Shown in pieces: positions 946 through 53,242 of a DNA stretch of 54,619 bases. A program made the translations under genes and the position numbers. The stretch comes from a virus (lineage: Duplodnaviria > Caudoviricetes). Location: the IMG/VR virus record IMGVR_UViG_3300044634_004299, positions 1 through 54,619 of that record. One strand, written 5' to 3'. Position 1 is the first letter of the stretch. Every line of letters begins with the position of its first letter. The notes under the pieces are model-generated. The model saw nothing but the letters and a program-made list of their open reading frames with translations. It was not told where the DNA came from and did not search any database.

Positions 946-1327
946 GATTTTAAAATTTTTGATAGTTTTTAATAAAAAAGAAAATGTATGATAAAAACAT
1001 AGCAAAATTTTTTGATATTTTAACTTTTGAGATGGTTTACAGTAATTTTATATATAACCATAGCTAAAAATATTCAAAACTCGTTGTAGCTATAAAATAA
1101 TCCAAAATTTAACTATATTACTTTTTTGATATCTAAAACAGTCCCAAATTGTTTTTGGGACTAGGGAAAGTGGTTATTTTTAAGTTATTTTAGTAAAAAA
1201 ACCTTGTAAGTCCCAACTGTTAGTTGGTTTTTTTACTAGGGAAAAGGGTGTATAATTCCTTAAAAGTCTTGTAATTTATTAGGTTTTTTACTAAAGAAAG
1301 GGTGATTTACACCTTTGATTTTATTTT

Positions 1328-1788
1328 AAACCCTTGTATTTCCTTGGTAAAAAGTTCTAGTGAAAGGGGATTTGACAGTAAAATATCCAAAAAAAGGGTA
1401 GGAAATGTAGGAATTTCCTAGAAAGGGATATAGTTAAGCTATCTAATTGGTGCTTTTTTTTACTATATCTTTTTTCAGTCACTTTTCACCAGAATTTTTT
1501 TTCCAAAATTTTTTTTACTACTCCTCTTATATAGGGACTTGTTTTTTGGATTCTAGGGATTTACAGGGTTCTTCACTTTCCACTCTAGGAAAAATAAGGG
1601 TTCGTTTTAGGGTGTTTTTTGGAAAAGTCAAAAATCTACTCTAGGGATTTCCAATACTTTACATTTTCAAAAAAGGGTGTTTTTGGAAAAAAGACTGGAA
1701 AATGAACCCAGTAAAAATCAGGGTTCATTTTTTATCTAAAGTGTGGTTTGTGGAAAATGAACCCTTATTTTTCCTAGAGTTGATTTTT
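1328..1788 (+). repeat. long inverted repeat, copy A (partner 44459-44952)
   Basis: reverse complement of 44459-44952 with long identical blocks; internal 22-bp IR 1582-1603/1759-1780; recurring C(T/C)AG(G/T)-N7-AGGGTT motif. Confidence 0.95.
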
Positions 1789-2011
1789 AGAATTTTTAGG
1801 GTATTTTTTTAGGATATTTTTTAGTAAATTTTTTATATTTCCAACAAAATTTTTTAGCATTTTTCATTCCAACAAAATTATTTTTATATTACATAAATGT
1901 ATAAAAATAGTATGCAATAATGTTAAATGGTTTTTTAATACAATGTATAACAATAAAATATAATTTGGTGATTTAAAATCAAACAAAACAATCTTTTAGC
2001 ACATAATTTTC

Positions 2012-5776: not shown

Positions 5777-5849
5777 TTTGTTTTGACAAAAATTGTAAAT
5801 GGTTTTAATATTAGGTATTGATTAATTTTTAATTAGGAGAAAATAGGAA

Positions 5850-6320: not shown

Positions 6321-6335
6321 AGGAGAAAATAGGAA

Positions 6336-6821: not shown

Positions 6822-6824
6822 GAA

Positions 6825-7487: not shown

Positions 7488-7755
7488 AATGATAAATAAA
7501 TTATTCACAAAAATATTAAGATGTAAATATTACTATTACAAGTTTGACGAATCACTATTAGAAGATAGTATTTATGATAAATTGGAAATAGAATATAAAA
7601 ATTTATTTGAAAAAAATAAAGACAAAATGAGTGATTCTGTTAGAAATAAACATCAAGGACTTTTAGATATGGTAGGTTTTGATGAAAAATATATTAAATA
7701 TTTAACTGTTGAGAAAAAACAAATGGATTTTTTTAATACTGTTGACAAAAATTAA
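7477..7755 (+). CDS. stand-alone NAD+-dependent ligase domain Ia (Nlig-Ia)-like protein
   Basis: KYYYYKFDESLLEDSIYDKLE matches the YY...(S/E)D..YD.L motif of LigA domain Ia. Confidence 0.7.
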   Translation: MIIKMINKLFTKILRCKYYYYKFDESLLEDSIYDKLEIEYKNLFEKNKDKMSDSVRNKHQGLLDMVGFDEKYIKYLTVEKKQMDFFNTVDKN

Positions 7756-7775
7756 TAAATAGTTTACAATTTATA

Positions 7776-7858
7776 TTGAATCTAATTATTACCGATACGA
7801 TAATTAGATTTACTCTTTCCTTAAACTCCAAGTAGTTAGTGCCTACTTGGAGTTTTTT
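7776..7858 (+). ncRNA. candidate small RNA 1
   Basis: TTGACA-17-TACAAT (7742-7770), 11-bp hairpin, UACUCUUUCCUU linker, strong terminator 7823-7858; no ORF. Confidence 0.55.
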
Positions 7859-7894
7859 ATTTGACAAAAATTAATAAATAGTTTATTATTTATT

Positions 7895-7990
7895 TAAGTT
7901 GGTGTTATTAGAGTTTTCTTCCTAATTTCGCTAGTAACACTAGCTAACTAAAAAAAAAGAGGGGATTGTGTAAACTTCCCCTCTTTTTTT
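7895..7990 (+). ncRNA. candidate small RNA 2
   Basis: duplicated promoter TTGACA-17-TATTAT (7861-7889); 15-bp stem with three G-U pairs; bidirectional terminator 7950-7990. Confidence 0.55.
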
Positions 7991-8050
7991 ATCATAAAAT
8001 TTTTCTGTTAATCAAGAAAAACTTATACAACCTTACCTAATCCTAGGAAT
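7950..8050 (-). ncRNA. candidate small RNA 3 (convergent)
   Basis: minus-strand TTGACA-17-TACAAT (8085-8057) firing into the bidirectional terminator. Confidence 0.4.
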
Positions 8051-15839: not shown

Positions 15840-15860
15840 TTATACATAAATGTATTTTTT

Positions 15861-15913
15861 GTTGACAATATTATACAAATGTGTTGACAATATTATACAA
15901 ATGTGTTTATAAT
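15861..15913 (+). promoter_or_regulatory. capsid promoter within a 22-bp tandem duplication
   Basis: GTTGACAATATTATACAAATGT twice (15861-15904); TTGACA-18-TATAAT. Confidence 0.65.
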
Positions 15914-34480: not shown

Positions 34481-35632
34481 ATGAGACAGATTGATAAAAA
34501 AGAAAATAATAAACAACCACCAACCGACCCATTATTGTTAAAATACTTCTTACAAGCAGACGATTTCAATGCTGTTTATCAAGAGTTAAGTAATACTTTA
34601 ATTAATTTCAATCAACCATACGAAAATGAAAACATTTCTTTATATAAACTTTTATTAGCTAACATTCCTATTGAAATTGAACCAGACGGCTACGATACAG
34701 ACACTACACAAGTAAATAAAATACTTTATACACTTAAATTCAAAGCAGATATTAAAAAAGCTTCTTTAACAACACCAAATACAAATTTGGTAACTGGTTT
34801 TAAATATGTTTGTAAAAAGAGTTATACAAATTCTTCAATTACTTATCCTGCTTTTGAAACTTTTGATGGTAAAACTGTTTATTATATTATAAAAATATAT
34901 AATAAAGACGACAATTCACAAATTTTAAATCAAACAAACGAGAAATCTACTGCAACAACAGGTATGTCAACTGCATTATTAGCTAGTTACTATAAAAATT
35001 TTGAAAATTTTGGTAAGTATATACCTAACTGGTTTGATAACATGTCTTATAAAACAATATCAAGATTAACAAATTTTGGTGTTATATTTAATTCTTTTTT
35101 AAACCCTACACAAATGCAAGAAATAAACGACAAACAATTTATTCAAGTAAAAAAAGATGTTAATAAAGCTATAAAATTCAACGAACATCCGTTAACATAC
35201 AAGTATCTTTCTCAATTGAACTTGCCTATTTTAAGACACAATACTAGTGAAAAAGAAATTTATTTTGAAGTTTTAGATTTCTATGTTAGAAACGAAGTTG
35301 GAAATATTAATAATTATCCAATTGGAACTTTTTTTGAGGGTAAAGTTGGGGTTCACAGTCACCAAACAGGTAATTTCAACATAAGTGCTAAGTCAACAAA
35401 CCCTAATGGATTTGAAAGTTTTGATGGTGGGGGTGAGGGTAACGAATATACTAATAATGTTGGCGGACCTAGAAGAAAAACAGTTGAAGTTTCAGGAACT
35501 GTTAATGGAGATTCAGTTGAAACAAATAGAATAAAGAGATTTGGTGAAACTACTTATACAGATACGACTAATAGTTATTTAGAAAACACACCAAACTCTA
35601 TACCATTTTATACATATATGTATGTTGATTAA
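34481..35632 (+). CDS. tail fibre protein
   Basis: ADDFNAVYQEL N-terminal motif; HSH and terminal E.TP collar-like motifs. Confidence 0.7.
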   Translation: MRQIDKKENNKQPPTDPLLLKYFLQADDFNAVYQELSNTLINFNQPYENENISLYKLLLANIPIEIEPDGYDTDTTQVNKILYTLKFKADIKKASLTTPNTNLVTGFKYVCKKSYTNSSITYPAFETFDGKTVYYIIKIYNKDDNSQILNQTNEKSTATTGMSTALLASYYKNFENFGKYIPNWFDNMSYKTISRLTNFGVIFNSFLNPTQMQEINDKQFIQVKKDVNKAIKFNEHPLTYKYLSQLNLPILRHNTSEKEIYFEVLDFYVRNEVGNINNYPIGTFFEGKVGVHSHQTGNFNISAKSTNPNGFESFDGGGEGNEYTNNVGGPRRKTVEVSGTVNGDSVETNRIKRFGETTYTDTTNSYLENTPNSIPFYTYMYVD

Positions 35633-37119
35633 ATACTTTTAACAAAATCATTATACATATCTATTGTTAGTTGTCTACCTTTTAGAAGTTCAAGTAATCT
35701 TTCTTCAAAGGTTTTCTTATAGATTAAATCGTAGATAAAAACTTCTTTGTGAGGGGAACCTATCCTAGTTAACCTACCCAACAACTGTATTCTTTTAGTT
35801 ATACTTGATTCTGTTTGATATATTATTAAATTATTACAAATTTTAAAATTATCTAAACCAACACCAACAGAATCAATTGTTGCTACACATATATCGTTTT
35901 CTTGCATTAAGGAATCATCACCAAGAAACCTAAAAACTTTGAAATCTGTTTCTGTTCTTATTAAATCATAAACCCTATTAGCTGATTCAACATTATAACA
36001 AGTAACTAAACATTTACCAGTTGTGAAATCTATATTATAAAGAATATCAAACATTTCTTTATCTTTATTTAAAACATCGTTAGATATTCTTTTAGCAACC
36101 CTATTTTCTTTAGAAATTTTAAAATCATTCAACAATTCTTTTATGGAGTATGTTTTTATATCAAAATATATACAACCCGCAATGGCTCTAAGTAACATTA
36201 TCTTTTCTTGAGTATTAACTACTCTTTGTGTATCAGCTATCTCCAAAACCTTATCTTTTTTGAGATTTTTTTGTATCTTTACAATACAATCATCTAATTC
36301 AATGTATATTTGTTTTTCATTTACTTTAATATCATTATCTACACCTACAACATCGTTAAAGAATGCTCTATTTGATAATTCATACAAATTATCATAGAAA
36401 ATAGACTTCATAAAATCTGTTTTAAATTCATTACTGAAACTGGTAAAATTTCCTTTATCATATCTAACTATTTGTGTTTTAAGGAAGTATGATTTAAACT
36501 CATATAAACTAAGTTCGCCACTCTTTTTTCTACCTACAGTTTCTCCTAAGTGGTCTTTAAAAAAAATACCATTTAGGTAACAAGCTATACCAATACAATT
36601 TATAGTATTAGCAATTGTTGTTGCTGATGAGAAAACACAATTACCCTTTAATCTACCTAAAACACCCATTGTTCCTTTAGTTTCTGTTTTTTTTGTTTTA
36701 GAATTAAAAGAAGTTGTTTTTTTACCTACTAAGTTATTATAAATCATAGATTTATCATTGTTTAAATATTTATGGAATTCATCAAAAATGACAAAACAAT
36801 TTTCCAATTTATCAATAACAAAATTTAAACCATATTTTGATAAACTATTAAAACTCATAACAAATATGTTGCTTTTTTCCCTATCTATATCAAAAACATC
36901 TTTTATAATATTAACATCTTCTAAAACATCTTTTAATTGTTTGATTATATTTTTAATATTAATAGCTAAGGTTATAAATATAATGTTTTTGTAACCTTGT
37001 TCTATTGCTAGATTTACAGTTCCATAAGTTTTTCCTGTTCCAGTATCCCAATACAAAAATGTTTTCTTTTCTATATTGGTTTGGTGTGGTAATAGTTTAA
37101 AAGATTCTTTGAATTTCAT
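35629..37119 (-). CDS. SNF2-like SF2 helicase
   Basis: LLPHQ, DTGTGKT, DEFH, SAT, GVGLD, QLLGRLTRIG; start moved to 37119 (GGAG RBS). Confidence 0.9.
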   Translation of the reverse strand: MKFKESFKLLPHQTNIEKKTFLYWDTGTGKTYGTVNLAIEQGYKNIIFITLAINIKNIIKQLKDVLEDVNIIKDVFDIDREKSNIFVMSFNSLSKYGLNFVIDKLENCFVIFDEFHKYLNNDKSMIYNNLVGKKTTSFNSKTKKTETKGTMGVLGRLKGNCVFSSATTIANTINCIGIACYLNGIFFKDHLGETVGRKKSGELSLYEFKSYFLKTQIVRYDKGNFTSFSNEFKTDFMKSIFYDNLYELSNRAFFNDVVGVDNDIKVNEKQIYIELDDCIVKIQKNLKKDKVLEIADTQRVVNTQEKIMLLRAIAGCIYFDIKTYSIKELLNDFKISKENRVAKRISNDVLNKDKEMFDILYNIDFTTGKCLVTCYNVESANRVYDLIRTETDFKVFRFLGDDSLMQENDICVATIDSVGVGLDNFKICNNLIIYQTESSITKRIQLLGRLTRIGSPHKEVFIYDLIYKKTFEERLLELLKGRQLTIDMYNDFVKSI

Positions 37120-37137
37120 AATTTTTCTCCAAATAAA

Positions 37138-37168
37138 AAGCACCAATATTTTATTTATATTGGTGCTT
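37138..37168. terminator. intergenic hairpin
   Basis: AAGCACCAATAT/ATATTGGTGCTT. Confidence 0.55.
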
Positions 37169-37656: not shown

Positions 37657-37977
37657 TTAACTCTTTGTTGAGTCAATTTTTAAAATTTCTTTGTAATTGT
37701 TTTGTATTATTTGCAAAAACAACTCATCTCTCTTTTTTTGTATTTGTTCTAAAAATTCAATATTTATTTCTTTAGAACAAATTGTATTTTTTTCTTTTTT
37801 GTCTTCTTTTTCTTTATATATATCACTTTGTGATATATACTTTTCATTGTATTTAAATTTAACACAATGATATTCTTTTTTGTAAAAAATTTTAATTACT
37901 ATTAGAGTTATAATATTACTTAAACTAGTTATTATAACTAAAAATAAAATAAACTTAAGAATTTGTTTCATTTTCAA
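37657..37977 (-). CDS. single-TM membrane protein, possibly related to 37177
   Basis: TM helix; YHCV...ISQSDIYK resembles VYCV...ITQTNLYK. Confidence 0.7.
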   Translation of the reverse strand: MKMKQILKFILFLVIITSLSNIITLIVIKIFYKKEYHCVKFKYNEKYISQSDIYKEKEDKKEKNTICSKEINIEFLEQIQKKRDELFLQIIQNNYKEILKIDSTKS

Positions 37978-39619
37978 CCTCTATTTTAAATGTTTTTTTA
38001 TGTATATTTATTATATTTTCTAGAACAGAATTATAAAATATATACTTTTCTTTTAATGAACCCCTATTCATTCTACCTAAAGTTTGCATAATGAACTTTA
38101 CAAATGTTTTTTTCTTTAGAGTTTCTAACGATAAGAATTTTCTATCAAAACTTCTTATTGTTGTTTGTATATATAACATTTTATTTATTTCAAGTAAAGA
38201 AAAATCGTTGTATACAATGTTATTTGGTGTATACGGTGTTATCAATTCTTCTTTTTTAAAGTCAAGAAAGTAGAAAAACTCAAACTCTGTAAAATCATTG
38301 CTACCAATTAATTTTGGAGAAGTTAAATAAAGTATCTCGTGATTCGGTGATAAACTACTACCTAATTCCTTTAAAACCTTATTCATTATAGTTTTTGTTG
38401 GTGTTATAAATAAGGTTTTGTGTTCTCTAAATTTATTAAAATCACTATAACAGCTAATTTTAAAATCTTTTATTTCATCAACATTTACATAATTGTATTC
38501 AATATTCTTCTTCATTTTATTTGAAGTAAAGAATTTATTTATTTCGTTTTCTTCAAAATCACCAAATATAGTAGCAGATAAACCAATTATTTTAGACTGA
38601 TTCGCTACTAAAACTTCATATGCTGGAAATGTTATATCTAGATAACCACCAGCTACAACTTCTTTTTCAACATCATCTACAGGAATTTTCTTAGCTAAAT
38701 CGTATTTGTAATGGAAAATATAACCGTTTATATCTAGTTCTTTTGGAAGTAAATAACAAAAATTATCATTACCTTTATTATATTTATAATCATTTATAGT
38801 TGTTATTTTTAATATGGTAACATTGCTATTTATTTCAGCTAAACTATCAAAACTATAACCCCAAACTTTAATATTACTTATATGTAAAAGGTTAGTAAAA
38901 GATTCTTTATTTCTAACTTCAACAAAACAAGAACTGTCTACTGTGTAAAATTCACCGTTTACTTGAAATATTTTATTTTCGTATTTATCTTTAAAATCCT
39001 GTTCCAATACTTCGTCGTATTCTTTATCAATCAAAACTTTCAATAACCTATCATTAGTTATAGGTTTTTTAAACATTATATCATTATTAATAAAGAAAGT
39101 TGATGCTAATATACCTAAGTTAGAGTCTAACTCGTCTATGAAGATATTATCACAGCTATTTATAAAATCTAAATAACAACTAACAACTCTTGATTTATCA
39201 ACATACGAATTCAAAACAAATCCAAGATTATATTGTGTTATTAACACTATATCTGCTATCTCAATAGGTGTGCTTAGATTTATCAAACCTAGATAGTAAT
39301 TAGCTAGTTTTTCTTCTATATTCTCTAAATCTTCTTCTTTATAAAGATTACCAATAGATAATTTTTTACAAACAGAACTAGGGATGTGAATTTTATGTTC
39401 TTTGAGAAATGGAGTTAATTTTATATCGTATAAATCAAAATCGTATCCAAAAAGTTTAACTAACTCCTTTAAAACATCATCAACATTAGATAAATTAGGA
39501 ACAATTATCATGTGTTTTTGGTTCTTATTTTCTTTTATATATTTACACATTGAATAAGTTTTACCCTCTCCTGTGTGTAAATTATTAATTACTGCTTTTA
39601 TTTTATTAAAATCAATCAT
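37955..39619 (-). CDS. SF2 helicase/ATPase paralogous to the replicase C-terminus
   Basis: TGEGKTYSMCK, IFIDELDS, LSAT, LIGSNDF, QTLGRMNRG. Confidence 0.85.
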   Translation of the reverse strand: MIDFNKIKAVINNLHTGEGKTYSMCKYIKENKNQKHMIIVPNLSNVDDVLKELVKLFGYDFDLYDIKLTPFLKEHKIHIPSSVCKKLSIGNLYKEEDLENIEEKLANYYLGLINLSTPIEIADIVLITQYNLGFVLNSYVDKSRVVSCYLDFINSCDNIFIDELDSNLGILASTFFINNDIMFKKPITNDRLLKVLIDKEYDEVLEQDFKDKYENKIFQVNGEFYTVDSSCFVEVRNKESFTNLLHISNIKVWGYSFDSLAEINSNVTILKITTINDYKYNKGNDNFCYLLPKELDINGYIFHYKYDLAKKIPVDDVEKEVVAGGYLDITFPAYEVLVANQSKIIGLSATIFGDFEENEINKFFTSNKMKKNIEYNYVNVDEIKDFKISCYSDFNKFREHKTLFITPTKTIMNKVLKELGSSLSPNHEILYLTSPKLIGSNDFTEFEFFYFLDFKKEELITPYTPNNIVYNDFSLLEINKMLYIQTTIRSFDRKFLSLETLKKKTFVKFIMQTLGRMNRGSLKEKYIFYNSVLENIINIHKKTFKIEVENETNS

Positions 39620-39620
39620 T

Positions 39621-40772
39621 TTACACCTCTAAAATCTTGGTTATTTTTGATAATGGTGTAAAATTAGATATATCACCGTTTTTCATAAGACAATTGTTGT
39701 TTAAAACGAACCAACAAACATCCAAGTTAGAATGTTTACCTTTAACAAAATTAGGTCTTTTGTTATAACCAACAAAAGATGTATTATCAAAATAATTAAA
39801 TAAATCAATTCTACCAATAGAACTAAAAGAAGAACAAGGTAATAATAACATTGATGTTATGTTAATGTTTTCTGTAAATTTATCTTCGTTTTTTTTCCAT
39901 ATATCAAATTTTCTTTTTTCAAATTCTTTATGGAACTCAACACAAAATTCTAAAAAAATATTTTTATTACTGTAAGGGGGATTCATAACAATAAGAACAT
40001 CCAACTTACTATTTATGTCTTTAATTTTTTTACTTAGTTTTGTTTTATCATAAATGAAATTAACATAATCGTTAATATTTTCTTTTTTTAATTCAAAATC
40101 AACCAAATCACTAGCAAAATATGATATTTTACTAGTATCAGCACCACCATCATTTAAACATTTTTTAAAACAATTAAATAAATTATCTTTATTTTCACCG
40201 ACACCACAACAAACATCTATGAATAAAATTTCATTTTCATATTTTTTAGTAGGTTTATTGGTATCAAACATGTAGTGCCCTATCAACTCACTATACATAT
40301 AATCAAAAAAAGCTTTAGCATGCTTTTCAGGAGTAATAAAATGTTCTCCTACAAACTCTTCTTTTTTTTCTCTCAATTTATTAAAAACATTTTCCATAAT
40401 TTTACTCTCCTCTAATTTTAAAAGTTGTATTTCACTTCCTATTTTATAATTTTTATAGAAAGATTCAGGTGTGTCAAAACCGAAATCTTGACAATTTCTA
40501 ACTATATTTTTACCATTTTTAGATAAAAATATTTTTTTATTTGGTATTATATAATCTTCATTTTCTGTGTTTATTTCATTTTCTTTAGTTATTTTATAAA
40601 CACCATATTCAACTACTTTATAACTTTCTATGAAACAATCGCTATTATTTGTAAAAATTTTTATTATAGTATTTTTTTTAATACCTTTAATATTTAAATT
40701 TTGTATTATTTCTTTTCTTTGTGATAAAAGAAAACCAGTATAAGCATTAAAACCAATTATTATATCAAGCAT
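39621..40772 (-). CDS. amino (N6-adenine) DNA methyltransferase with N-terminal extension
   Basis: FIDVCCGVG motif I preceding VMNPPYS motif IV. Confidence 0.8.
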   Translation of the reverse strand: MLDIIIGFNAYTGFLLSQRKEIIQNLNIKGIKKNTIIKIFTNNSDCFIESYKVVEYGVYKITKENEINTENEDYIIPNKKIFLSKNGKNIVRNCQDFGFDTPESFYKNYKIGSEIQLLKLEESKIMENVFNKLREKKEEFVGEHFITPEKHAKAFFDYMYSELIGHYMFDTNKPTKKYENEILFIDVCCGVGENKDNLFNCFKKCLNDGGADTSKISYFASDLVDFELKKENINDYVNFIYDKTKLSKKIKDINSKLDVLIVMNPPYSNKNIFLEFCVEFHKEFEKRKFDIWKKNEDKFTENINITSMLLLPCSSFSSIGRIDLFNYFDNTSFVGYNKRPNFVKGKHSNLDVCWFVLNNNCLMKNGDISNFTPLSKITKILEV

Positions 40773-44340: not shown

Positions 44341-44458
44341 CAAATATACTAAAACTTTTTTTATTTAAAGTCAAGTGGAAAAATAATAAAAAATATTTTT
44401 TTTAAAAAATATAAATTTTTAAAAAAATCAACTCTAGGAAAAATAAGGGTTTTTATCA

Positions 44459-44952
44459 AAAAATCAACTCTAGGAAAAATAAGGGTTCATTTTCCACAAA
44501 CCACACTTTAGATAAAAAATGAACCCAGTAAAACACAGGGTTCATTTTCCAGTCTTTTTTCCAAAAACACACTTTTTTAAAATGTAAAGTATTGGAAATC
44601 CCTAGAGTAGATTTTCAATTTTTTTCAAAAAGTTTGGAAAACGAACCCTTATTTTTCCTAGAGTGGAAAGTGAAGAACCCTGTAAATCCCTAGAATCCAA
44701 AAAACAAGTCCCTATATAAGAGGAGTAGTAAAAAAATTTTGGAAAAAAATTCTGGTAAAAAATGACTGAAAAAATGACTAAAAAAATTCTAAGAAAAGTT
44801 ACTAAAAAAAGATATAGTAAAAAAAAGCACCAATTAGATAGCTTAACTATATCCCTTTCTAGGAAATTCCTACATTTCCTACCCTTTTTCTGGATATTTT
44901 ACTGTCTAATCACCTTTCACTAGAACTGTTTGCTAAGGAAATCCAAGGGTTT
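44459..44952 (-). repeat. long inverted repeat, copy B
   Basis: reverse complement of 1328-1788 with a ~33-bp insertion; extra tandem copy of the terminal ~30 bp at 44422-44451. Confidence 0.95.
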
Positions 44953-44974
44953 TTAATAAAATTATTTTTTGTTA

Positions 44975-45003
44975 GTGACAAAATTATTTTTTTTGTTTAT
45001 ACT
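44975..45003 (+). promoter_or_regulatory. promoter of the replicase operon
   Basis: GTGACA-17-TATACT. Confidence 0.5.
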
Positions 45004-45039
45004 TTATGAAAGTGTAAAAAATTAGGGTTTTTTAGTAGA

Positions 45040-48000
45040 ATGAATAAATTATTTTTTGATATTGAGATTTTAAGCAACGATAAACTGAGACTTGGTTTAT
45101 TGGATGAAAATGGTGTTTTTGAAATATTGGATTTTGATAACCTTTATTCATTCGGTCAGTATTTGGTTACTGATTTCATTTACAAATACGACAAAAACAT
45201 TCTTGTAGGTTATAACAACGAGGGGTTTGATAACAAGCTTTTACAGTATTCAATAATGATTTTAGACCCTAATAAAGCAGTTTATAAAAGGTCACCGCAG
45301 TTCATAACAGATGTTCTCATAACTGCAAATAACAATAAGAAAATGGAAGCTTTAAAGCTCCAAGATGAAAAATATTACAAATCTGTTTTATTTTACAAAA
45401 ATAGTGGTGAATTAGACAAACTTTACTACAACCAACTACCTTTCATAGACCTAATGAATTTCTTTAAAGGTGGTGCTAGTAAAGAGGGTTCTTTAAAGTT
45501 TTATACAGCTAAATTTTTAAATAAATCTTATGATGATTCGCAGGATTTTGATTCTGTAGAATATTTAAAAATGGACTTAGAAAATACAAGGGATTTGTAT
45601 AATCTAAAAAAGGATGATTTTGAAGTAATTTTCACAGCTTACAACTTGTTAAACATTGATATTAGGGGTTCTATAAAGGAACCATCTTTAGCTGGTGCTT
45701 ATCTAAATAAAAATTTAATTTTCAATGATAATTTCAAAAATAAATTTAAAAAAGATTTTGAGAATCACCCTATTTTTTACGATATGATAAATTCAGTAAA
45801 AAAGAAAGAAATTAACTATCTAGGTTACAATGTTGAAGTTAACGAGGGTGGTATCCACTTCTCAAAAACAAATGGTTTTTCTTATAAAAAAGAAGAGAAT
45901 CAGGACTACTATATTTACAACATAGATGCTACCTCATTTTACCCATACACATATATTCAAAACGGTATTTTTGAAGAATCATCTACAAAAAAAATAAAAG
46001 AGTTTCTTGAGAAAAGAAAAATTGCTAAAAAAAGCGGTGATAAAAAAACAGATTCTGCATACAAACTAGTCCTAAACAGCTTATACGGTAAAATGTTTTC
46101 TAGATGGGATGAAACAAAAACCACAGCACACGTAACATTTTATACACAATCGGCTATTCTTTCTTTTATAGAAAAAATGAATAATGACGGTTTTTTAGAT
46201 GATTTAATTGATATTAATACAGATGGTATAATAATAAAATCAAGAAAAAAAATTGAAGAATCAGTTATAGAATTTACAGACCCATTAACAAAATTAATTT
46301 ATTCTTTTGAAGTAGGGGAAGTTGATTATCTTTACTATAAAGATTCTAACAACTATATTGTAAATTTTGTTGGAGAAGATAAAACAAAATATAAAGGTTC
46401 TTGGGTTGAAAATGCTAGTTGCCACAGTTCCATAAACCTTATCTTCTTTAAAAATATTTTAGATGGTATTTTAAAAGAATCACCCATTGAAGAATTTAAA
46501 GATATTTGGTTTAAGGGTATAACCAAAGAAAAAACAAGTGATAAAACAGCAACATACCATTTTGACTATGTTGATTTTACAAGAAACGAACAATTTTCTT
46601 TTGAAAACCCAAACATTATACAAAAGACAGTTTTATATGGTAAAGATAAAGATTTACCACCTAAAAGATTCTTTAAAGGTTATATAACCGATGAGGAAAA
46701 ACTTTTTGTTATAGAATCTATAAAAAAGGATTTCTTCCAAAAAACATCCAGTGTTTTTTATGGTGCAGAATCAGATAAAAAAAATAGTAGGGCGGTTATC
46801 GCTAAAACAAACTTTGTTTTATGTGAAAAAAAATATATAAAAATATTTTCCGAATCACTTTCAAAAAATATATTCATTTTAGATTTTGATAATAAAACTG
46901 ATTCTATTGAAAATATACAAAATGCTATAGATTCTTTTAAAAGTTTCATTAAAGAAAAAAATATTTTATTTGAAGAAGAAGTATCTTCTTCTGGTAAAGG
47001 TTATCACATAATCTTATCAAACTATAAAAAAGATTTAACAGAAGAAGAAATAAAAAATAAAATAAAAGAAATAAAAACCCCAGAATGTGAAATTGAGTTA
47101 AGATATAATAACGGTGATGGGACAACTCTTTCTTGGGATGTTTCTAGATTATCTAAAGAGAGAAGAAGATTTATTCATGATTTAATAACAACTAAAGAAG
47201 ATGTTGTTATTAAAACTGTTGCTAAACAAAAAACTAAAAAGAAAGAGGGTAAAACCCTAATAAATGATAAACATTTATCAAAAATAAAAAAGATAGTTGA
47301 AAATTCTAATTTAGGTTATGTTTACGAATCAATTAAAGATAATACAGACTTAGTTTTTAAATGTCCTCACAATCATAAAAAAACAAACTCAAAAACTGAA
47401 ATATATTATTCCAAGGAAGAAGATAGATATGTAGCTAATTGCTTTGCTTGTAATTCAAACGAAGAAGAACTAACAGTGTTAAACAAATTAAGAAGTGTTA
47501 TAAACACAGTTATCATAGAGAAAGTTGAGGAACAATATAAGTTAGAAGAAAAAGCTGCAGATTGTAAATTTGTAATTGATAAGAGCGATGTAGGGACTGG
47601 TAAAACTTATGCAATGTGTAAGGATGTCAAAAATCTAATAGAATCAGGTGAAAAATGTTTTATTATTGGTAATAAAACAACAACAAGTGAAATGATTCGT
47701 AACCAACTTTTAGAATTAGGTGTTATGGACGGTGATATTTTCATATGTGCTTCACCAGATAACGCTACTGATAATTGGAGAAATTTTGTTGAGGTTTTTG
47801 AAGATAAGGGTTATAAAATAATAATAGCTATTTATAGTTATTTTCAACTTTACTATGAAAATACAAAACAATTTAAAAAATATAATAATGAAGCTGAATT
47901 AACCAACTATTTATCAAACTACACTTTATTAGCTGGTTTATCTAATTATTGCAATAACAATTCTGTTAACCTTTTTATAGATGAAGCTGACGAATCACTT

Positions 48001-49401
48001 TCAAATATTTTAACACTTAAAATAAAAAATCCTATAATTTTTGGTAAAAAAGATAAAAAAACTAATTTTTGGAATTATTCAAATAAAAGTGATTCTCAAG
48101 TTTTGGGTTTTTGTGAATTACAGAAAGATTTGTTTTTTATAAATCCTAAAAAAAATGATGATGAAAATAAAGAAACTGCAGATTTTTTAAACCCTATAGA
48201 ATTTAAAAATAAAAATAAATTATCTGTTTTCTCTTTTGAAAATAGTTTTTTATGTAGACAAAATGAGGTAGAATACCAAGGCTCTAATAAGGATATGTTA
48301 AAATTTGGTGATATAACACTAAAGGTAGAAAAACCAAAAGAATATGGTAGGTCTCATTTAAAAGTTGAATTAATTAAAGCTAAAATTAACTTAAATAAAA
48401 ATGAAGTATACCAAGAATGTTTTTACAATCTTTTAAAAAATGAACTAATATTAGAAAATAAATTTTTTACAAAATTTCTTATAAACACAAATTTTAAATC
48501 AATAAAAATATTAACAGCAACCGAATCAAGGTTACAGGACTATAAATTTTATAAAGATTTTATTGATTTAAAAAGAGTTATATATATTGAAAATAAAACA
48601 TCATTTAAGCACAATTTTAAAGCTTACAGGATGGATATAACAACTGGTGGTGCTAATACTAACGAAACATCTTATAACTGTGTTAAATCAATAGAAAAAG
48701 AGAAAAATTCAAAAAACTTACTTGTTATGGGAAATAAAGAAAATACTAAGAATAGGTTTGATAGTGGTAAAATACCTTTACCTAATAGCAGGTTTATAGA
48801 ATTAAACAAACACTATAAAAGGGGTTATGATGGTGATTTCTTCAACGACAACGGTATAAAAACAATCATATCTTATGTTAAACACTCTTCCCTTAGGGGT
48901 AATAACAATTTTGGAGAAATTAACAATGTAGTTCTTGCTTTTAGTTCATATGTTGGAGATTACAACCAAGATGGTTGTTTTGGTGACTTTAAAAGTATAT
49001 ATAATGGTAATCATGGTAAAATTCTAAAAGACTTGATAAAACAAGTATTCGGTAGACTTATGAGGGGTAATCCTGATAAAAAAATATATTATGAGTATGC
49101 TGTAAATAAAAAAGAAGAACCAACAGAATCTTCCATTTTATTAGAAAAATTAATAAAAGAGTATGATATAGAAATAGTTGATTTAGATTTGAAAGAATCA
49201 CTTAATTTTTTTAGTAATGTAAAATTAGACGATTTAGAAATAAAAAACGAATCACTTAAAAAATATGAAAAATACGAAAAAGAATTTTACGATGGAAAAG
49301 AGTTATTAAAGAAAATAAAAAAAAATCCAAGTAAAAAAAACAAAGATAATATAAAAAGTTTATATAATAGTTTAAGGAAAAAGTATAATGGTAGTATTTG
49401 A
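45040..49401 (+). CDS. fused family-B DNA polymerase / AEP primase / Zn finger / SF2 helicase
   Basis: Exo DIE, GYNNEGFD, YLKMD; pol DATSFYP, KLVLNSLYG, NTDG; primase LDFD, SSSGKGYH; CPHNH..CFAC; GTGKT, DEAD, TAT, QVFGRLMRG. Confidence 0.9.
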   Translation: MNKLFFDIEILSNDKLRLGLLDENGVFEILDFDNLYSFGQYLVTDFIYKYDKNILVGYNNEGFDNKLLQYSIMILDPNKAVYKRSPQFITDVLITANNNKKMEALKLQDEKYYKSVLFYKNSGELDKLYYNQLPFIDLMNFFKGGASKEGSLKFYTAKFLNKSYDDSQDFDSVEYLKMDLENTRDLYNLKKDDFEVIFTAYNLLNIDIRGSIKEPSLAGAYLNKNLIFNDNFKNKFKKDFENHPIFYDMINSVKKKEINYLGYNVEVNEGGIHFSKTNGFSYKKEENQDYYIYNIDATSFYPYTYIQNGIFEESSTKKIKEFLEKRKIAKKSGDKKTDSAYKLVLNSLYGKMFSRWDETKTTAHVTFYTQSAILSFIEKMNNDGFLDDLIDINTDGIIIKSRKKIEESVIEFTDPLTKLIYSFEVGEVDYLYYKDSNNYIVNFVGEDKTKYKGSWVENASCHSSINLIFFKNILDGILKESPIEEFKDIWFKGITKEKTSDKTATYHFDYVDFTRNEQFSFENPNIIQKTVLYGKDKDLPPKRFFKGYITDEEKLFVIESIKKDFFQKTSSVFYGAESDKKNSRAVIAKTNFVLCEKKYIKIFSESLSKNIFILDFDNKTDSIENIQNAIDSFKSFIKEKNILFEEEVSSSGKGYHIILSNYKKDLTEEEIKNKIKEIKTPECEIELRYNNGDGTTLSWDVSRLSKERRRFIHDLITTKEDVVIKTVAKQKTKKKEGKTLINDKHLSKIKKIVENSNLGYVYESIKDNTDLVFKCPHNHKKTNSKTEIYYSKEEDRYVANCFACNSNEEELTVLNKLRSVINTVIIEKVEEQYKLEEKAADCKFVIDKSDVGTGKTYAMCKDVKNLIESGEKCFIIGNKTTTSEMIRNQLLELGVMDGDIFICASPDNATDNWRNFVEVFEDKGYKIIIAIYSYFQLYYENTKQFKKYNNEAELTNYLSNYTLLAGLSNYCNNNSVNLFIDEADESLSNILTLKIKNPIIFGKKDKKTNFWNYSNKSDSQVLGFCELQKDLFFINPKKNDDENKETADFLNPIEFKNKNKLSVFSFENSFLCRQNEVEYQGSNKDMLKFGDITLKVEKPKEYGRSHLKVELIKAKINLNKNEVYQECFYNLLKNELILENKFFTKFLINTNFKSIKILTATESRLQDYKFYKDFIDLKRVIYIENKTSFKHNFKAYRMDITTGGANTNETSYNCVKSIEKEKNSKNLLVMGNKENTKNRFDSGKIPLPNSRFIELNKHYKRGYDGDFFNDNGIKTIISYVKHSSLRGNNNFGEINNVVLAFSSYVGDYNQDGCFGDFKSIYNGNHGKILKDLIKQVFGRLMRGNPDKKIYYEYAVNKKEEPTESSILLEKLIKEYDIEIVDLDLKESLNFFSNVKLDDLEIKNESLKKYEKYEKEFYDGKELLKKIKKNPSKKNKDNIKSLYNSLRKKYNGSI

Positions 49402-49840
49402 AAAGGAAAAAATAGGTGTTGAATACACCTTAGATTTCTTTAATAACTTAGAGGAATTTAAAAAAACTTTTAATAGAAAAGCATTTTATACTACTATGAT
49501 GTGTAATAAAACATCAGGTGAAATCATACCTACTATAAGTAAAATATGTGGTTTATACAATAGCAAAAAAGATAAACCACTTGTAATTTATTTAGATGGA
49601 ACAATAGAAGATTTTAAAAATTCAATTTTTAAAGTAACACCACAAACATTAAAATACATTGAAACAACACAAGCTTTAAAATGTAAATACATGCAAGGAT
49701 TAAATTATACTAGATTTAAAAAAAATAATTGTGTAAAATTTACTACAAGTTGGGATATCTTAATGTATAATTATTGTGATTCTCAAATTGATATAATTGA
49801 AAAAAAATATAATCAAAACTTTATAAAAATAGGAAAATAA
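49388..49840 (+). CDS. hypothetical protein
   Basis: overlaps the replicase stop; AAGGA RBS. Confidence 0.7.
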   Translation: MVVFEKEKIGVEYTLDFFNNLEEFKKTFNRKAFYTTMMCNKTSGEIIPTISKICGLYNSKKDKPLVIYLDGTIEDFKNSIFKVTPQTLKYIETTQALKCKYMQGLNYTRFKKNNCVKFTTSWDILMYNYCDSQIDIIEKKYNQNFIKIGK

Positions 49841-49844
49841 TAAA

Positions 49845-50609
49845 ATGGTTTTTTTTAAAAAAAATAATTACAACCTTGATAGAATTAGATGTTTCTGCAT
49901 TGAGGGAGACGACGGAGTAGGTAAAACAACATTTATAAAAAATATTATGAGAAATTCTGGTAACAGGAGATTCGCATACATCCACATGCCAAGTAACATA
50001 ACATACTTGGTTGATAAAGACTATGACCCATATTTAACACACTTTGATAATTTCTTAAAAAATATGAATAATTATAAAGATTTTACAACCACAATGAATC
50101 AGGAATGTCTATTACAGTCAGTAGCAGTAGGTTACAACATACTTACCACAATACTTACGACTAGCTATATAATCATACAGGACAGGGGTATTATAAGTAA
50201 TATTGTTTATAAAAATTACAAAAAAGTAAAAGATAGAATACATTATAGGAATATTGATAATAAGATTAGTCAAAGTTACGATTTTATAAAATACCATGTA
50301 ACTAACTTTGAAGATTTTATAGACAGAACCTTACATGTTATTCTAGATAGCAGGACTTTTAAAACAGACAAAGGGGATACTTTATTTTTAACTAATAAAA
50401 ACTTAATGAGATTCCATAAAAATTTCACAGTAAAAAAAGAAAGTGATAGAATTAAAAACGGTTATTTAGATTTCTTATACTATTACAAAAAGAATTCAAA
50501 AAAAGAATTTAACTTCACTAAAACAATTGTCGTTGGTAAATATTTCTACTATAATAAAAAAATGGATATAAATAAACTAAAGAAAGAATACCATAATCAA
50601 AATGTTTAA
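49845..50609 (+). CDS. thymidylate/dNMP kinase-like protein
   Basis: IEGDDGVGKTT and IIQDRGIISN. Confidence 0.8.
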   Translation: MVFFKKNNYNLDRIRCFCIEGDDGVGKTTFIKNIMRNSGNRRFAYIHMPSNITYLVDKDYDPYLTHFDNFLKNMNNYKDFTTTMNQECLLQSVAVGYNILTTILTTSYIIIQDRGIISNIVYKNYKKVKDRIHYRNIDNKISQSYDFIKYHVTNFEDFIDRTLHVILDSRTFKTDKGDTLFLTNKNLMRFHKNFTVKKESDRIKNGYLDFLYYYKKNSKKEFNFTKTIVVGKYFYYNKKMDINKLKKEYHNQNV

Positions 50610-52134: not shown

Positions 52135-53169
52135 TTAAAAATAAATTTTGTCAAATAACTTCCTAACCATTAAAGGTGGTATACTCTCACCTATCAATTC
52201 TCTAACAAAATGTTCTGTATAAATATCATTTACAACAATTTTATCAATAGGTATAGTATGTAATATCATCAATTCCAGCAAAGTTAAAACCCTAGCATCA
52301 CTATATAAACCATTCTCTAACAACCTACCATAATGGCAATTAGCACCAGAAGATATAGTAGTATTAGTAGTTGTTATAGTATGGTGTGGTTTATCAAAAT
52401 AAGTCCTTTTATAAGTGCTTCTAAAAGCTTTTATTCTTCTACCATTTGTTTTAGGGTAGAAATCCAAATTATCCATTGCACTTTTACCAGTTGGGGTATG
52501 TTTTATACACTCTATTAGTTGTTTGTTTGCTACATCTAGTGCTTTATGATATTTTATACCAGAATCACAACCAGCTTCTAAACTAGGTAAATGACCTATA
52601 GCTTCTCCAACAGTAACTATTTTTTCTTTGTTTGGCAATTCCCAACTCAAACCTTTTCTATAGATTCGGTAAAATAATCTTTTTCTTTTTTGTGGGACAC
52701 CATATTCACTACAATCCAAAACATCATACTCAACATTATACCCTAATTTATCAAATTCAGTTTTAAGGTGATTCGCTAAATCAACACCATTTATCATAAC
52801 CTTATTTATTTGCATTACATTTTCTATCAAAACATAATCAGGATAAACTATTTTACAATAGTCTATCACCCTTAGTGTTAAGAAATTTCTTTTATCTAAC
52901 ATGTCCCTCCTACCAATAAGACTAACACCTTGACAAGGTGGGGTAGCAATGAGAAATTTAACATCATTTCTAAGTGATTCTTTAACAACACTATCAAAAA
53001 TATCATTATCCAAGATATCACCACAAATCATATTATTTTCTGGATGGAGAACTTTATAATAATTAGACCTTTTACGAATCAGTTCGTTAGCAACAACAAT
53101 TTTTAACGAATCAGGTAGCATTAATTCTGCAATACCGCAATTAGAAAACAAACTACAACCATTAATCAT
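52135..53169 (-). CDS. C5-cytosine DNA methyltransferase
   Basis: SLFS.CG, PPCQGVS, IENV, PQKRKR, RVLTLLE, IGESIPP; start moved to 53169; recalls HgaI-type MTases (from memory, unverified). Confidence 0.93.
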   Translation of the reverse strand: MINGCSLFSNCGIAELMLPDSLKIVVANELIRKRSNYYKVLHPENNMICGDILDNDIFDSVVKESLRNDVKFLIATPPCQGVSLIGRRDMLDKRNFLTLRVIDYCKIVYPDYVLIENVMQINKVMINGVDLANHLKTEFDKLGYNVEYDVLDCSEYGVPQKRKRLFYRIYRKGLSWELPNKEKIVTVGEAIGHLPSLEAGCDSGIKYHKALDVANKQLIECIKHTPTGKSAMDNLDFYPKTNGRRIKAFRSTYKRTYFDKPHHTITTTNTTISSGANCHYGRLLENGLYSDARVLTLLELMILHTIPIDKIVVNDIYTEHFVRELIGESIPPLMVRKLFDKIYF

Positions 53170-53242
53170 TTTTTTATTCCTTTTTAAAAAATTATATTTT
53201 ATCATTATAACACAACTTAATTTTAAAAGGAGAATAGGAAAA

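Follow-up and report, generated by a model that had tools for sequence, protein, structure and literature searches.

The stretch of DNA analysed here (the window, 54,619 nucleotides) is a metagenome-derived tailed-phage record, IMGVR_UViG_3300044634_004299, which carries terminase, portal and baseplate genes and is estimated to be 54% complete. The phage is a freshwater one. A region involved in DNA metabolism, with an exonuclease VIII-like gene, methyltransferases and nucleotide kinases, contains a single long open reading frame, P0001, which has the exonuclease VIII-like gene across the intergenic region from it. The features discussed below are as follows.

45040..49401, + strand: gene for the putative fused replicase P0001, 1453 aa (uninterrupted ORF, full-length homologues, no in-ORF indels)
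45040..45729, + strand: 3'-5' exonuclease domain of a family-B polymerase (PolB), aa 1-230 (invariant Exo residues; coverage by phrog_1252)
45730..46494, + strand: PolB palm and fingers, aa 231-485 (BLASTP to phage R7M, tblastn, motifs)
46495..46794, + strand: thumb-like C-terminal part of PolB, aa 486-585, boundary approximate (phrog_1252 in the homologue P0003; alignment)
46795..47214, + strand: AEP-like primase core, aa 586-725 (invariant motifs; sub-threshold profile matches)
47215..47334, + strand: lysine-rich linker, aa 726-765 (17-34% identity among homologues)
47335..47475, + strand: CHC2-type zinc finger, aa 766-812 (four invariant ligands; sub-threshold primase matches)
47557..49089, + strand: SF2-type helicase, aa 840-1350 (invariant motifs; sub-threshold ResIII match; hhalign with the paralogue)
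49090..49398, + strand: lysine-rich C-terminal tail, aa 1351-1453 (25-38% identity among homologues)
37955..39619, - strand: standalone helicase gene, 554 aa, paralogue of the helicase part (ResIII, hhalign)
44420..44960, no strand: iteron-rich non-coding element immediately 5' of the P0001 gene (four copies of CTAGG-N7-AGGGTT)
1310..1830, no strand: second, inverted copy of the element (long identical blocks; four pattern matches, 1329-1777)

No domain reached its curated cut-off in a Pfam search of P0001, and PDB sequence and profile searches with the protein gave no match. Conservation was read from an alignment of P0001 with the homologues P0003 (56% identity), P0004 (55%) and P0005 (29%), in which the key motif residues are invariant, except the A of DEAD.

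Sequence comparisons strongly support the N-terminal ~585 residues as a proofreading family-B polymerase of a Queuovirinae-type phage group, with all exonuclease and polymerase motifs retained. The phrog_1252 family, annotated as DNA polymerase, matched aa 2-486 (E 7.7e-30), and it also matched P0003 (E 7.2e-27, residues 2-590) and P0005 (E 9.4e-26). The PolB of Alteromonas phage R7M was found by BLASTP with 28% identity (E 1e-21), and tblastn yielded matches in 87 phage records; for the 30 matches listed of these 87, the underlying feature was a DNA polymerase in 27 rows and a "coil containing protein" in three, and one record among those listed had no annotation. Three exonuclease motifs (Exo I, FDIEIL, aa 6-11, D7/E9; Exo II, GYNNEGFDN, aa 57-65, N59/D64; Exo III, YLKMDLENT, aa 175-183, Y175/D179) precede the polymerase motifs A (DATSFYP, aa 296-302, D296xTSxYP), B (KLVLNSLYG, aa 342-350, K342..N346..G350) and C (INTDG, aa 392-396, N393-T-D-G396), as well as DxNNY (aa 435-439) and KxKG (aa 450-453). 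Exo I-III, motifs A and B and NTDG are invariant across P0001 and four standalone phage PolBs, with whose C-terminal ends aa 486-585 could be aligned. The exonuclease and PolB motifs listed in the earlier note, including the variant motif C, were thus confirmed in a protein homologous to annotated phage PolBs. Judged from these comparisons, NTDG is the normal form of motif C within the Queuovirinae-type group, and the second carboxylate is described as the only one needed for metal coordination (PMC5695915).

The C-terminal ~510 residues are supported as an SF2 helicase by their motifs, namely I (GTGKT, aa 852-856, G852-x-GKT856), II (DEAD, aa 981-984, D981-E-x-D984), III (TAT, aa 1159-1161), V (S1283..R-G-N-N1289) and VI (QVFGRLMRG, aa 1335-1343, Q1335..GR..R1342), with an insert of ~145 aa between II and III. 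The residues of all five are invariant in the four-protein alignment apart from the A of DEAD; since P0005 has DEFD, motif II is better read as DExD. ResIII scored 18.3 bits (E 0.0024) against P0001 and 20.6 bits against P0005, for a cut-off of 22.5, and the latter protein also gave weak matches to Flavi_DEAD and DEAD. A protein-atlas search matched the helicase part, at 0.95, with clusters carrying ResIII/DEAD/YonV_C. The standalone 554-aa helicase, for which four homologues were found, exceeded the ResIII cut-off with 26.1 bits, and its family aligned colinearly with the helicase part in hhalign (probability 89.4%, E 2.1e-6); the two are paralogues of common stock. The motif set, the ResIII-scoring paralogue and the atlas match together uphold the SF2 assignment that had been made from the letters alone.

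The repeat next to the gene, to which the earlier note had drawn attention, is real, and the window contains a second copy of it, inverted relative to the first. Its 18-nt pattern, CTAGG-N7-AGGGTT, has nine occurrences in the window, where 0.23 would be expected, a number reached in 0 of 100 shuffles, and an alignment of positions 1100-1900 (+) with the reverse complement of 44350-45040 revealed long identical blocks. We consider 44420..44960 a candidate origin or operator region, and P0001 might act on it as an origin-binding replicase, the link between the two being solely one of position. The same element would also fit an explanation in which the helicase part does not drive the fork, and instead serves as an initiator or accessory translocase, by origin melting like that of herpesvirus UL9, fork restart or primer hand-off, with another replicative helicase at the fork. 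The presence of two further SF2-like helicase genes in the window points in this direction, whereas the UL9 family model PF02399 had no match in the window and neither had DnaB_C, in a record that is incomplete. We regard such an accessory role as doubtful, if possible. Window scans with DNA_pol_A and DNA_pol_B (PF00136) were likewise without a match; with the record 54% complete, the missing part may contain a primase or hexameric helicase gene separate from P0001.

It is plausible, as judged by conserved motifs, that aa 586-812 comprise an AEP primase core and a CHC2 zinc finger. The core contains motif I (ILDFDNK, aa 613-619, D615xD617), motif II (SSSGKGYHII, aa 649-658, S651..G654-Y-H656) and a candidate motif III (E686..G692), and the finger contains CPHNH (aa 775-779) and CFAC (aa 801-804). 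Residues D615, D617, S651, G654, Y655, H656, E686 and G692 and the zinc ligands C775, H779, C801 and C804 are kept in all aligned homologues, including the one of 29% identity, whereas identity in the linker (aa 726-765) is 17-34%, versus 43-67% for the PolB palm. All motifs named in the earlier note are located where it had placed them, with the D615 codon at 46882 and the D981 codon of DEAD at 47980. The identification of the core as an AEP comes from sub-threshold matches: AEP-TOTE (PF22548) scored 15-16.9 bits for a cut-off of 27 and singled out the core as the sole candidate region in a scan of the window (15 bits, E 3.3e-4 for the genome; E 0.005 for the isolated piece), and the "DNA primase" family phrog_3022 gave an E of 0.013. 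For the finger region, two families of the same annotation, phrog_47 (E 3e-4) and phrog_8634 (E 0.013), and Zn_ribbon_DnaG (E 0.04, below cut-off) responded, and both parts were leads in the protein atlas, the core at 0.84. Window scans with Prim-Pol, RepB_primase and Zn_ribbon_DnaG gave no match. Aligned by hhalign with nine PrimPol cores from the HelPrimPolB group of phage enzymes, the core scored 20.9 (P 0.0065) with motifs I-III colinear, a score equalled in 1 of 150 column shuffles; the HH-suite probability was low, at 1.9% when a long piece was aligned and 5.8% with the core. Known HelPrimPolB PrimPol cores themselves reach only 13.5-17.4 bits against Pfam Prim-Pol, in four of five records, and sub-threshold scores are thus usual for such phage AEPs.

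These scores, and the absence of Prim-Pol and RepB_primase matches in the window, would also fit a reading of P0001 as a PolB-helicase fusion without a working primase in its middle, in which that part is a relic, decayed or put to a new use, that acts with the zinc finger as a linker or DNA-binding module. Typical AEP domains have at least 75 residues before motif I, and the core is unusually short, at ~140 aa with ~30 residues ahead of that motif. Primers could then come, for example, from a host primase, from recombination intermediates produced with the help of the exonuclease VIII-like gene across the intergenic region, or from a primase encoded where the genome is still unsequenced. However, all three catalytic-motif positions and all four zinc ligands have been kept at 29% identity while the linker has drifted, and the order and spacing of the motifs are as in known PrimPol cores. 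Decayed domains would usually lose exactly such residues, and we find a relic unlikely.

The single-ORF form of the gene is not an assembly accident. As the earlier note had described, one reading frame extends over 45040-49401 (+), with an ATG start, 0 internal stops and 1453 aa; chance stop codons are common at ~24% GC, so that 4.36 kb without one cannot be accidental. Full-length homologues have 1454-1459 aa and 1315 aa, and of the 25 sequences listed across four 90%-identity clusters, 17 have the full length (1315-1459 aa); of the eight shorter members, seven come from contigs that are themselves 1.3-4.2 kb long, and the eighth, P0143 (1205 aa), from one of 18.3 kb. A 3298-nt contig from sequencing run X1, possibly the source sample, is identical to 44860-48157 with 0 differences and takes in PolB and the first lobe of the helicase, with the AEP-like core and the zinc finger between them, and pieces from run X5, with 2-5% divergence, align to most of 45112-49425 without a gap. 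Contigs from four runs contained 0 indels inside the ORF, and 11 of 11 listed indels are upstream of the ATG. Among 40 listed substitution rows of 202, 16 fall in the ORF, 14 of them on third codon positions. The contig mapping listed six low-depth joints. One is upstream of the ATG (depth 39-45, sides of 97 nt); the other five, four in the ORF and one reaching into it from upstream, have depths of 2-11 and sides of 21-22 nt and were treated as other-organism or repeat sequence, because sides below 30 nt often have that origin. That the ORF is a chimaera, or several genes joined by sequencing error, as a metagenome-derived record with a few low-depth joints might suggest, is extremely improbable given 15 distinct full-length sequences of 1453-1455 aa plus the 1459- and 1315-aa forms from several sources, the lack of in-ORF indels in four runs, substitutions mainly at third codon positions and the conservation of every domain in register. 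We conclude that the ORF is genuine and conserved and that purifying selection acts on it.

We consider it probable that the gene encodes the main DNA replicase of the phage as one polypeptide. It would begin with a proofreading PolB (aa 1-~585), of a compact phage group also present in the Queuovirinae and some Vibrio phages, and continue with an AEP-type primase core, a flexible lysine-rich linker, a CHC2 finger, a two-lobed SF2 helicase and a basic tail, for which no family match was found at E <0.01 (aa 1351-1453). The helicase part may open the duplex ahead of the polymerase; most SF2 enzymes move 3'->5', and with that polarity this one would run along the polymerase's template strand. 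The AEP core and the zinc finger, a kind that primases use for holding template DNA, could lay primers on the displaced strand, and PolB could extend and proofread these, with the upstream iteron-rich element as a potential start site.

The closest known counterparts are the HelPrimPolB enzymes, such as gp55 of Lactococcus phage 1706, an SF3 helicase-PrimPol-PolB fusion (Kazlauskas 2016, PMC4889955; 2020, PMC7544198), and the proteins annotated as "DNA primase/polymerase" in many actinophages. As described there, these phage replicases unite a helicase, an AEP/PrimPol and an exonuclease-bearing PolB in one polypeptide, as in P0001, and AEP motifs I-III are colinear (LDFDxK; SxSGxGxH; IExxxYxG). 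The PrimPol segment of gp55 has matches in 253 phage records. In contrast, the domain order is helicase-PrimPol-PolB in the published descriptions and PolB-AEP-Zn-helicase in P0001, the helicase is SF3 (DUF5906 in gp55) rather than SF2-like, a CHC2 finger is missing from the corresponding position in gp55, and the PolBs belong to different clades, with no significant similarity between P0001 and gp55 (best BLASTP E 0.015, hhalign probability 6%).

The PolB part is instead homologous to standalone phage enzymes (phrog_1252; R7M, Pseudomonas phage PAJD-1, Vibrio phage 2.096.O), with which it has NTDG, DxNNY and KxKG in common. The Queuovirinae-type PolBs are 688-726 aa, stand alone and have longer N-terminal regions, whereas P0001 starts six residues ahead of Exo I and has ~870 further residues. 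The standalone genes adjoin clamp-like or helicase genes.

An AEP located N-terminally to an SF2-type helicase has also been described, in gp68 of phage PAU (PMC4889955) and in the All3500 family, with remote SF2-like C-termini (PMC5862659), and a role in mobile-element replication was predicted for these proteins. As described, they have no polymerase, which sets them apart from P0001; the YonV family of SPbeta, taken as a presumed stand-in for the uncharacterised SPbeta proteins of PMC5862659, reached an hhalign probability of 2.2%. AEPs, for which the earlier note gave SF3 helicases as the usual partners, are thus not paired with these alone, and both polymerase-primase-helicase and AEP-SF2 architectures are already in print.

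A PolB and a two-lobed helicase are joined in one chain also in polinton-like viruses (Tlr1, pPolB-SF1 helicase-GIY-YIG; OmPLV, SF1 helicase-pPolB), with an N-terminal PolB in Tlr1, as in P0001. Unlike P0001, these fusions are described as eukaryotic, with an SF1 helicase and a protein-primed PolB and neither primase nor zinc finger, and Tlr1 as lacking an exonuclease (PMC12721341). A motif-level likeness is seen in the published description of the piPolB of pipolins, in which motif C likewise has another residue for its first Asp (TTDG, versus NTDG in P0001) and K-x-(K/R)-G takes the place of KxY (KTRG in piPolB, KYKG in P0001, KTKG in R7M; PMC5695915), although the P0001 gene belongs to a tailed phage rather than to a pipolin. 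Among Pfam PolB models, the protein-primed PF03175 was the only one to respond to P0001, below its cut-off (17.9-18 bits).

Of the novelty suggested in the earlier note, the triple fusion as such is known from HelPrimPolB, and what stands is the order PolB-AEP-Zn-SF2 with this PolB clade, which was not found in the literature searched for such fusions. The best explanation is that P0001 is a counterpart of the SF3 helicase-PrimPol-PolB fusions, independent of them and with its domains in the opposite order. It is a rare, rearranged form of the fused phage replication enzyme, with the reverse domain order, another PolB clade and an SF2 helicase.

The gene for the fused replicase (P0001) lies in a linear virus record from IMG/VR (54,619 bp), with a completeness estimate of 54% and a G+C content of about 24%, alongside tailed-phage genes for the large terminase, portal, head protease/capsid and baseplate wedge. 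The earlier note had claimed a single uninterrupted ORF with polymerase, primase and helicase motifs. This description stands, and the interpretation given with it is supported in part.

45040-49401, + strand: P0001 ORF, ATG start, 1453 codons without a stop

There are no internal stops, and the gene is overlapped by only one other ORF of at least 60 aa, which encodes 63 aa and runs on the opposite strand. All motifs listed previously are present, and the two coordinates given for them are exact (D615 of the DxD motif at nt 46882 and D981 of the DEAD motif at nt 47980). Among 5.8 billion protein clusters, four relatives were identified, all of similar length.

P0002: 1453 aa, 99% identity to P0001
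P0003: 1459 aa, 56% identity to P0001
P0004: 1454 aa, 55% identity to P0001
P0005: 1315 aa, 29% identity to P0001

Full-length proteins make up 17 of the 25 sequences in the four clusters of the family; seven of the eight shorter ones are from contigs of 1.3-4.2 kb, and the eighth, P0143 (1205 aa), is from an 18.3-kb contig. Conservation extends over all parts of the protein. Against P0003 and P0005, respectively, the exonuclease part is 61% and 35% identical and the palm 67% and 43%; the AEP-like part reaches 47% and 24%, the first helicase lobe 61% and 29% and the second lobe 54% and 23%. Drift is confined to the tail and to a linker rich in lysine, at 34% and 17%.

We compared contigs from four sequencing runs with the window over positions 44400-49450; the evidence below comes from these four and leaves aside 20 further runs with small word shares. 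Contigs from X1 and X2 leave parts of the ORF uncovered. A contig of 3298 nt from run X1, which may represent the source sample, is identical to positions 44860-48157, and the pieces from run X5 diverge by 2-5% with no gaps. All 11 indels listed in the comparison are located upstream of the P0001 ATG. Five low-depth joints touch the ORF, four internally and one entering from upstream, with sides of only 21-22 nt; according to the warning of the comparison tool, joints with sides below 30 nt are frequent products of other organisms or repeats. Among the 40 substitutions listed, of 202 in total, 16 fall within the ORF and 14 of these are at codon position 3, which argues that the frame is under purifying selection. 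The P0001 gene is real, single, conserved and under selection.

The family is also very rare in current databases, with four clusters at 90% identity. A phmmer search with aa 490-1453 against 1.84 billion representatives gave three matches, none of which was a further relative: the cluster of P0001 itself and two repeat proteins aligned over the P-loop stretch only. No match was obtained with aa 560-1453 in a tblastn search against phages at E<=1, with the whole protein against Pfam, or with sequence and profile searches of the PDB. Relatives of the family represented by P0001, P0003, P0004 and P0005 were not found in viral, metagenome and genome contigs, nor were relatives found in viral contigs by means of the window terminase. 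The sequencing runs listed for the window include no RNA.

The polymerase part (aa 1 to about 585) contains the exonuclease motifs Exo I (DxE; D7/E9), Exo II (Nx3-4D; N59/D64) and Exo III (Yx3D; Y175/D179), which are invariant both within the family alignment and in an alignment of the P0001 polymerase part with four standalone phage PolBs. PolB motifs A (DxxSxYP) and B (KxxxNSxYG) and the residues D435-x-N-N-Y439 are likewise invariant across these five proteins, and both lysines and the glycine of a K-x-K-G motif are kept in the four that extend that far. Motif C reads NTDG, which the earlier note had singled out as a variant. The motif is indeed present, but it is not unusual, since all five aligned members of this phage polymerase group (phrog_1252) carry it with the second aspartate retained; we therefore regard it as the normal state of the group rather than as a defect. 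In the accessible text of PMC5695915, only the second carboxylate of motif C is needed for metal coordination.

Database comparisons place the polymerase in the same group. The phrog_1252 family (“DNA polymerase”) matched aa 2-486 of P0001 with an E-value of 7.7e-30 and residues 2-590 of P0003, and the 722-aa PolB of the Queuovirinae phage R7M of Alteromonas is 28% identical to P0001 (BLASTP, E 1e-21). In a tblastn search of 50,697 phage records, 87 matched P0001, all through aa ~245-488; among the 30 matches listed from these records, 27 lie under DNA polymerase features and three under “coil containing protein”, and one record is unannotated. The protein-primed PolB model PF03175 scored 18 bits, under its cut-off of 25.8, and the rPolB model PF00136 matched neither P0001 nor the window. 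A tblastn search of plasmids with aa 1-587 gave only two matches, both PolB-only, and a literature search on polymerases of the phrog_1252 type found nothing. P0001 carries a complete PolB. Its NTDG and KxKG motifs recall the TTDG and KTRG of piPolB, the primer-independent PolB of pipolins; set against the motif definitions in the accessible text of PMC5695915, NTDG and K-Y-K-G are present and the KH-X8 spacing is not seen. Together with the PF03175 score, these motifs hint at a link to the protein-primed/primer-independent branch, as a motif-level lead.

Some features of the standalone relatives may also be recorded here. In two loci of Queuovirinae phages, the PolB gene immediately follows a clamp-like gene (annotated “DNA polymerase III” or “putative replicative clamp”) and the genes for 7-deazaguanine synthesis. 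The related PolB of Klebsiella phage KpV79 (positions 5074-8007 of locus L007) is annotated as pieces of 507 aa and 195 aa with an 837-bp hypothetical ORF between them, an arrangement that could reflect a split gene or the insertion of a mobile element.

The catalytic motifs of AEPs are, in order, motif I (DxD/E), motif II (sGxGxH) and motif III (an acidic residue). The middle of P0001 (aa 586-835) has motifs I and II and a candidate for motif III in this order, and the groups hhhD615xD617, S651xxG654-Y-H656 and E686..G692 are invariant in the family; E686 is the candidate for motif III through its alignment with the IE(I/V)K of PrimPol cores. The lysine-rich linker is followed by a zinc-finger pattern, C775-x3-H779...C801-x2-C804. 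The family signals for this region are each below threshold and all point in one direction. A whole-window scan gave a single candidate for AEP-TOTE (PF22548), located exactly at aa 610-657 (15 bits, E 3.3e-4 at the scale of this genome), and the same family gave an E-value of 0.005 and up to 16.9 bits on the isolated middle piece, against a cut-off of 27. The “DNA primase” family phrog_3022 matched aa 608-664 (E 0.013), and the zinc finger matched the “DNA primase” families phrog_47 (E 3e-4) and phrog_8634 (E 0.013) and the Pfam family Zn_ribbon_DnaG (CHC2; E 0.04). Clusters with AEP-TOTE, CHC2 and RepB_primase were found at 0.84 in a protein atlas, which serves as a lead only, and scans of the window for Zn_ribbon_DnaG, Prim-Pol (PF09250) and RepB_primase (PF16793) gave no match.

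In a directed test, a nine-sequence alignment of PrimPol cores from HelPrimPolB, the known phage fusion of SF3 helicase, PrimPol and PolB, was compared with aa 590-725 of the P0001 family. The hhalign program paired LDFDxK, SxSGxGxH and IExxxYxG with the same motifs of the PrimPol cores at a score of 20.9 (P 0.0065), which was reached in one of 150 column shuffles of the query (mean 10.9, sd 2.2); the probability given by HH-suite itself is low, at 5.8%. Since the known PrimPol cores score only 13.5-17.4 bits on Pfam Prim-Pol, in four of five records, weak scores are the rule for such phage AEPs. The short module, with about 30 residues ahead of motif I, and the window scans without a match count against an AEP. 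On balance, we consider aa 586-725 to be probably an AEP. Of the AEP and zinc finger proposed previously, the motifs hold, with DxD, SxxGxH and the finger ligands invariant in the family, whereas the family matches all stay below threshold.

The helicase part (aa 840-1350) has a set of SF2 motifs in the expected order that is invariant in the family, consisting of motif I (G852/G854/K855/T856), motif II (D981/E982/D984), motif III (T1159-A-T), motif V (S..RGNN; R1286-G-x-N1289) and motif VI (Q1335/G1338/R1339/R1342); the DEAD tetrapeptide reads DEFD in P0005. Direct matches to helicase families are weak: ResIII scores of 18.3 bits for P0001 and 20.6 bits for P0005 compare with a cut-off of 22.5, and P0005 matches Flavi_DEAD (E 0.013) and DEAD (E 0.039). 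Indirect evidence is stronger. A feature search of the protein atlas with aa 835-1400 reached 0.95, a value that shuffled proteins attain about once in 100, and the matching clusters carry ResIII, DEAD or YonV_C. The PDB gave no match to this part. The YonV family (PF27199) was rejected as a relative, with an hhalign probability of 2.2% over the P-loop only. Two further helicase genes are encoded in the window.

37955-39619, - strand: standalone helicase, 554 aa; ResIII 26.1 bits, above the 22.5 cut-off
35629-37146, - strand: third SF2-like helicase gene, 505 aa; phrog_62 E 9.1e-28, DEAD and ResIII just below cut-offs

When the standalone helicase and its three homologs were aligned with the helicase part of the fusion, hhalign gave a probability of 82.7% (E 9.4e-6), and a more permissive run was colinear over the full length (6-549 against 5-557; probability 89.4%, E 2.1e-6) along a path through motifs I, II, III, V and VI. 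The two are therefore paralogs, and the SF2 helicase assigned to P0001 previously is supported by its ordered motif set and by its relation to a paralog that scores above the ResIII cut-off. The paralogy suggests how the fusion was built: the helicase of P0001 appears to stem from a duplicated gene of this phage that was recruited into the fusion. A simple fusion of neighboring genes is not supported, because the helicase beside a related PolB in Vibrio phage 2.096.O was rejected as a relative, with a probability of only 7%. Scans for Herpes_ori_bp, DnaB_C and DNA_pol_A gave no match in the window, in a record that is 54% complete and in which nearly half of the genome is missing. A homolog of the standalone helicase (P0131) and the replicase homolog P0003 are both found on contigs of 11,129 bp, and the two genes may therefore travel together.

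The P0001 gene opens a rightward block, and across a gap of 875 bp that contains repeats, a leftward block starts with an exonuclease VIII-like gene. The adjacent repeat on which the earlier note had proposed that the replicase acts is real and is one of two inverted copies.

1310-1830 and 44420-44960, inverted copies: iteron-rich non-coding element, ~520 bp, CTAGG-N7-AGGGTT, GGGTTCATTTTCC; 42.6 kb apart

The pattern CTAGG-N7-AGGGTT occurs nine times in the window against 0.23 expected, a count reached in none of 100 shuffles, and the matches form two clusters, at 44434-44693 and 1329-1777. In the alignment, the stretch at about 1310-1830 (+) matches that at about 44420-44960 in inverted orientation, in long identical blocks. 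The left copy is upstream of rightward genes starting at 2075. The right copy, in the same relative orientation, is found between the replicase gene and the leftward block starting at 44164, of which it is upstream. The element could be an origin, a cluster of operators or both, and the two copies could be paired origins or an early control region in common. Its sole tie to P0001 is position. Promoter-like sites upstream show no excess (six, against 5.6 in shuffles).

Several other features of the window deserve mention. Positions 1-2074 are about 2 kb without an ORF of at least 80 aa and are dense in repeats, including a 68-nt inverted repeat (64-131 / 220-287, 90% complementary), further dyads and TGTTAAT-type tandem units at 162-270. 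The adjacent genes at 2475-3284 and 3298-3759 consist almost entirely of 87-nt (29-aa) tandem repeats, in 8.9 and 5.1 copies with an 82% match. The 683-aa protein encoded at 15946-17997 (+) may be a protease-capsid fusion, as its N-terminal ~280 residues match head maturation protease and major head protein PHROGs; just upstream of this gene, at 15860-15907, a 22-nt unit (TGTTGACAATATTATACAAATG) is perfectly repeated in tandem, with 2.2 copies, and includes TTGACA-like and TATA-rich hexamers. Two genes resembling thymidylate/deoxynucleoside kinases (5195-5776 and 49845-50609) and two DNA methyltransferase genes (39621-40772 and 52135-53205, both on the - strand) hint at modification of nucleotides or DNA. 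A search of the window for tRNA genes gave none.

How might such a protein work? The helicase would unwind the duplex, the AEP core and zinc finger would prime the displaced strand, and the PolB would extend and proofread the primers, all within one chain. Extended to its full form, the proposal is that of a single, self-sufficient replisome of 168 kDa, in which a non-hexameric SF2 helicase would drive the fork, priming would fall to a minimal AEP with a CHC2 finger of the DnaG type, and synthesis with proofreading to a compact PolB whose clade has piPolB-like active-site variants (NTDG, KxKG), perhaps with strand displacement or some priming of its own. Replication would start at the two inverted iteron elements, and the protein would be an independent polymerase-primase-helicase fusion, the first with an SF2 motor. 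We put this forward as a speculative scheme, which in its entirety is rather unlikely to be correct. If primase and helicase activities were shown, P0001 would be a clean test case for single-chain replisomes. The protein would, moreover, join the few candidates for a monomeric replicative SF2 helicase. Compact and all-in-one, an enzyme of this kind from a freshwater phage of low GC content could also interest those working on isothermal DNA amplification.

The strongest evidence from nature that polymerase, primase and helicase act as a single unit is their fusion in one protein, and P0001 should be moderately surprising to a specialist. Parts of its architecture have precedents in the accessible texts of earlier studies: replicative helicases of the SF2 class joined to DnaG in N15 and PY54 or to an AEP in PAU gp68 (PMC4889955), AEPs with remote SF2-like C-termini (Kazlauskas et al., 2018; PMC5862659) and a PolB fused to an SF1 helicase in polinton-like viruses (PMC12721341). 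The primase is N-terminal to the helicase in 94% of the viral primase-helicase fusions described in the accessible text of PMC4889955, an order that P0001 follows. In the earlier note, a fusion of PolB, AEP and SF2 helicase was not known to have been characterized; HelPrimPolB and AEP-SF2 fusions are in fact published, but the order PolB-AEP-Zn-SF2 was not found in the paper listings and text passages covered on such fusions and on the name HelPrimPolB. That name was found only in Kazlauskas et al. (2020).

In HelPrimPolB, the SF3 helicase and PrimPol are N-terminal, ahead of the PolB (Kazlauskas et al., 2020; accessible text of PMC7544198), whereas P0001 is arranged as PolB-AEP-Zn-helicase with SF2-like motifs. 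The HelPrimPolB protein of Lactococcus phage 1706 (gp55) has DUF5906, to which P0001 has no match, and it was rejected as a homolog of the P0001 polymerase part (best BLASTP E 0.015, hhalign probability 6.2%). As domain order, helicase class and PolB clade all fail to agree, we place P0001 outside HelPrimPolB and view it as a convergent counterpart. The known phage cases have an N-terminal SF3 helicase. A second version, assembled independently and set apart by its reverse order, PolB clade, CHC2 finger and SF2 helicase, would demonstrate that evolution reached this solution more than once, from different parts.
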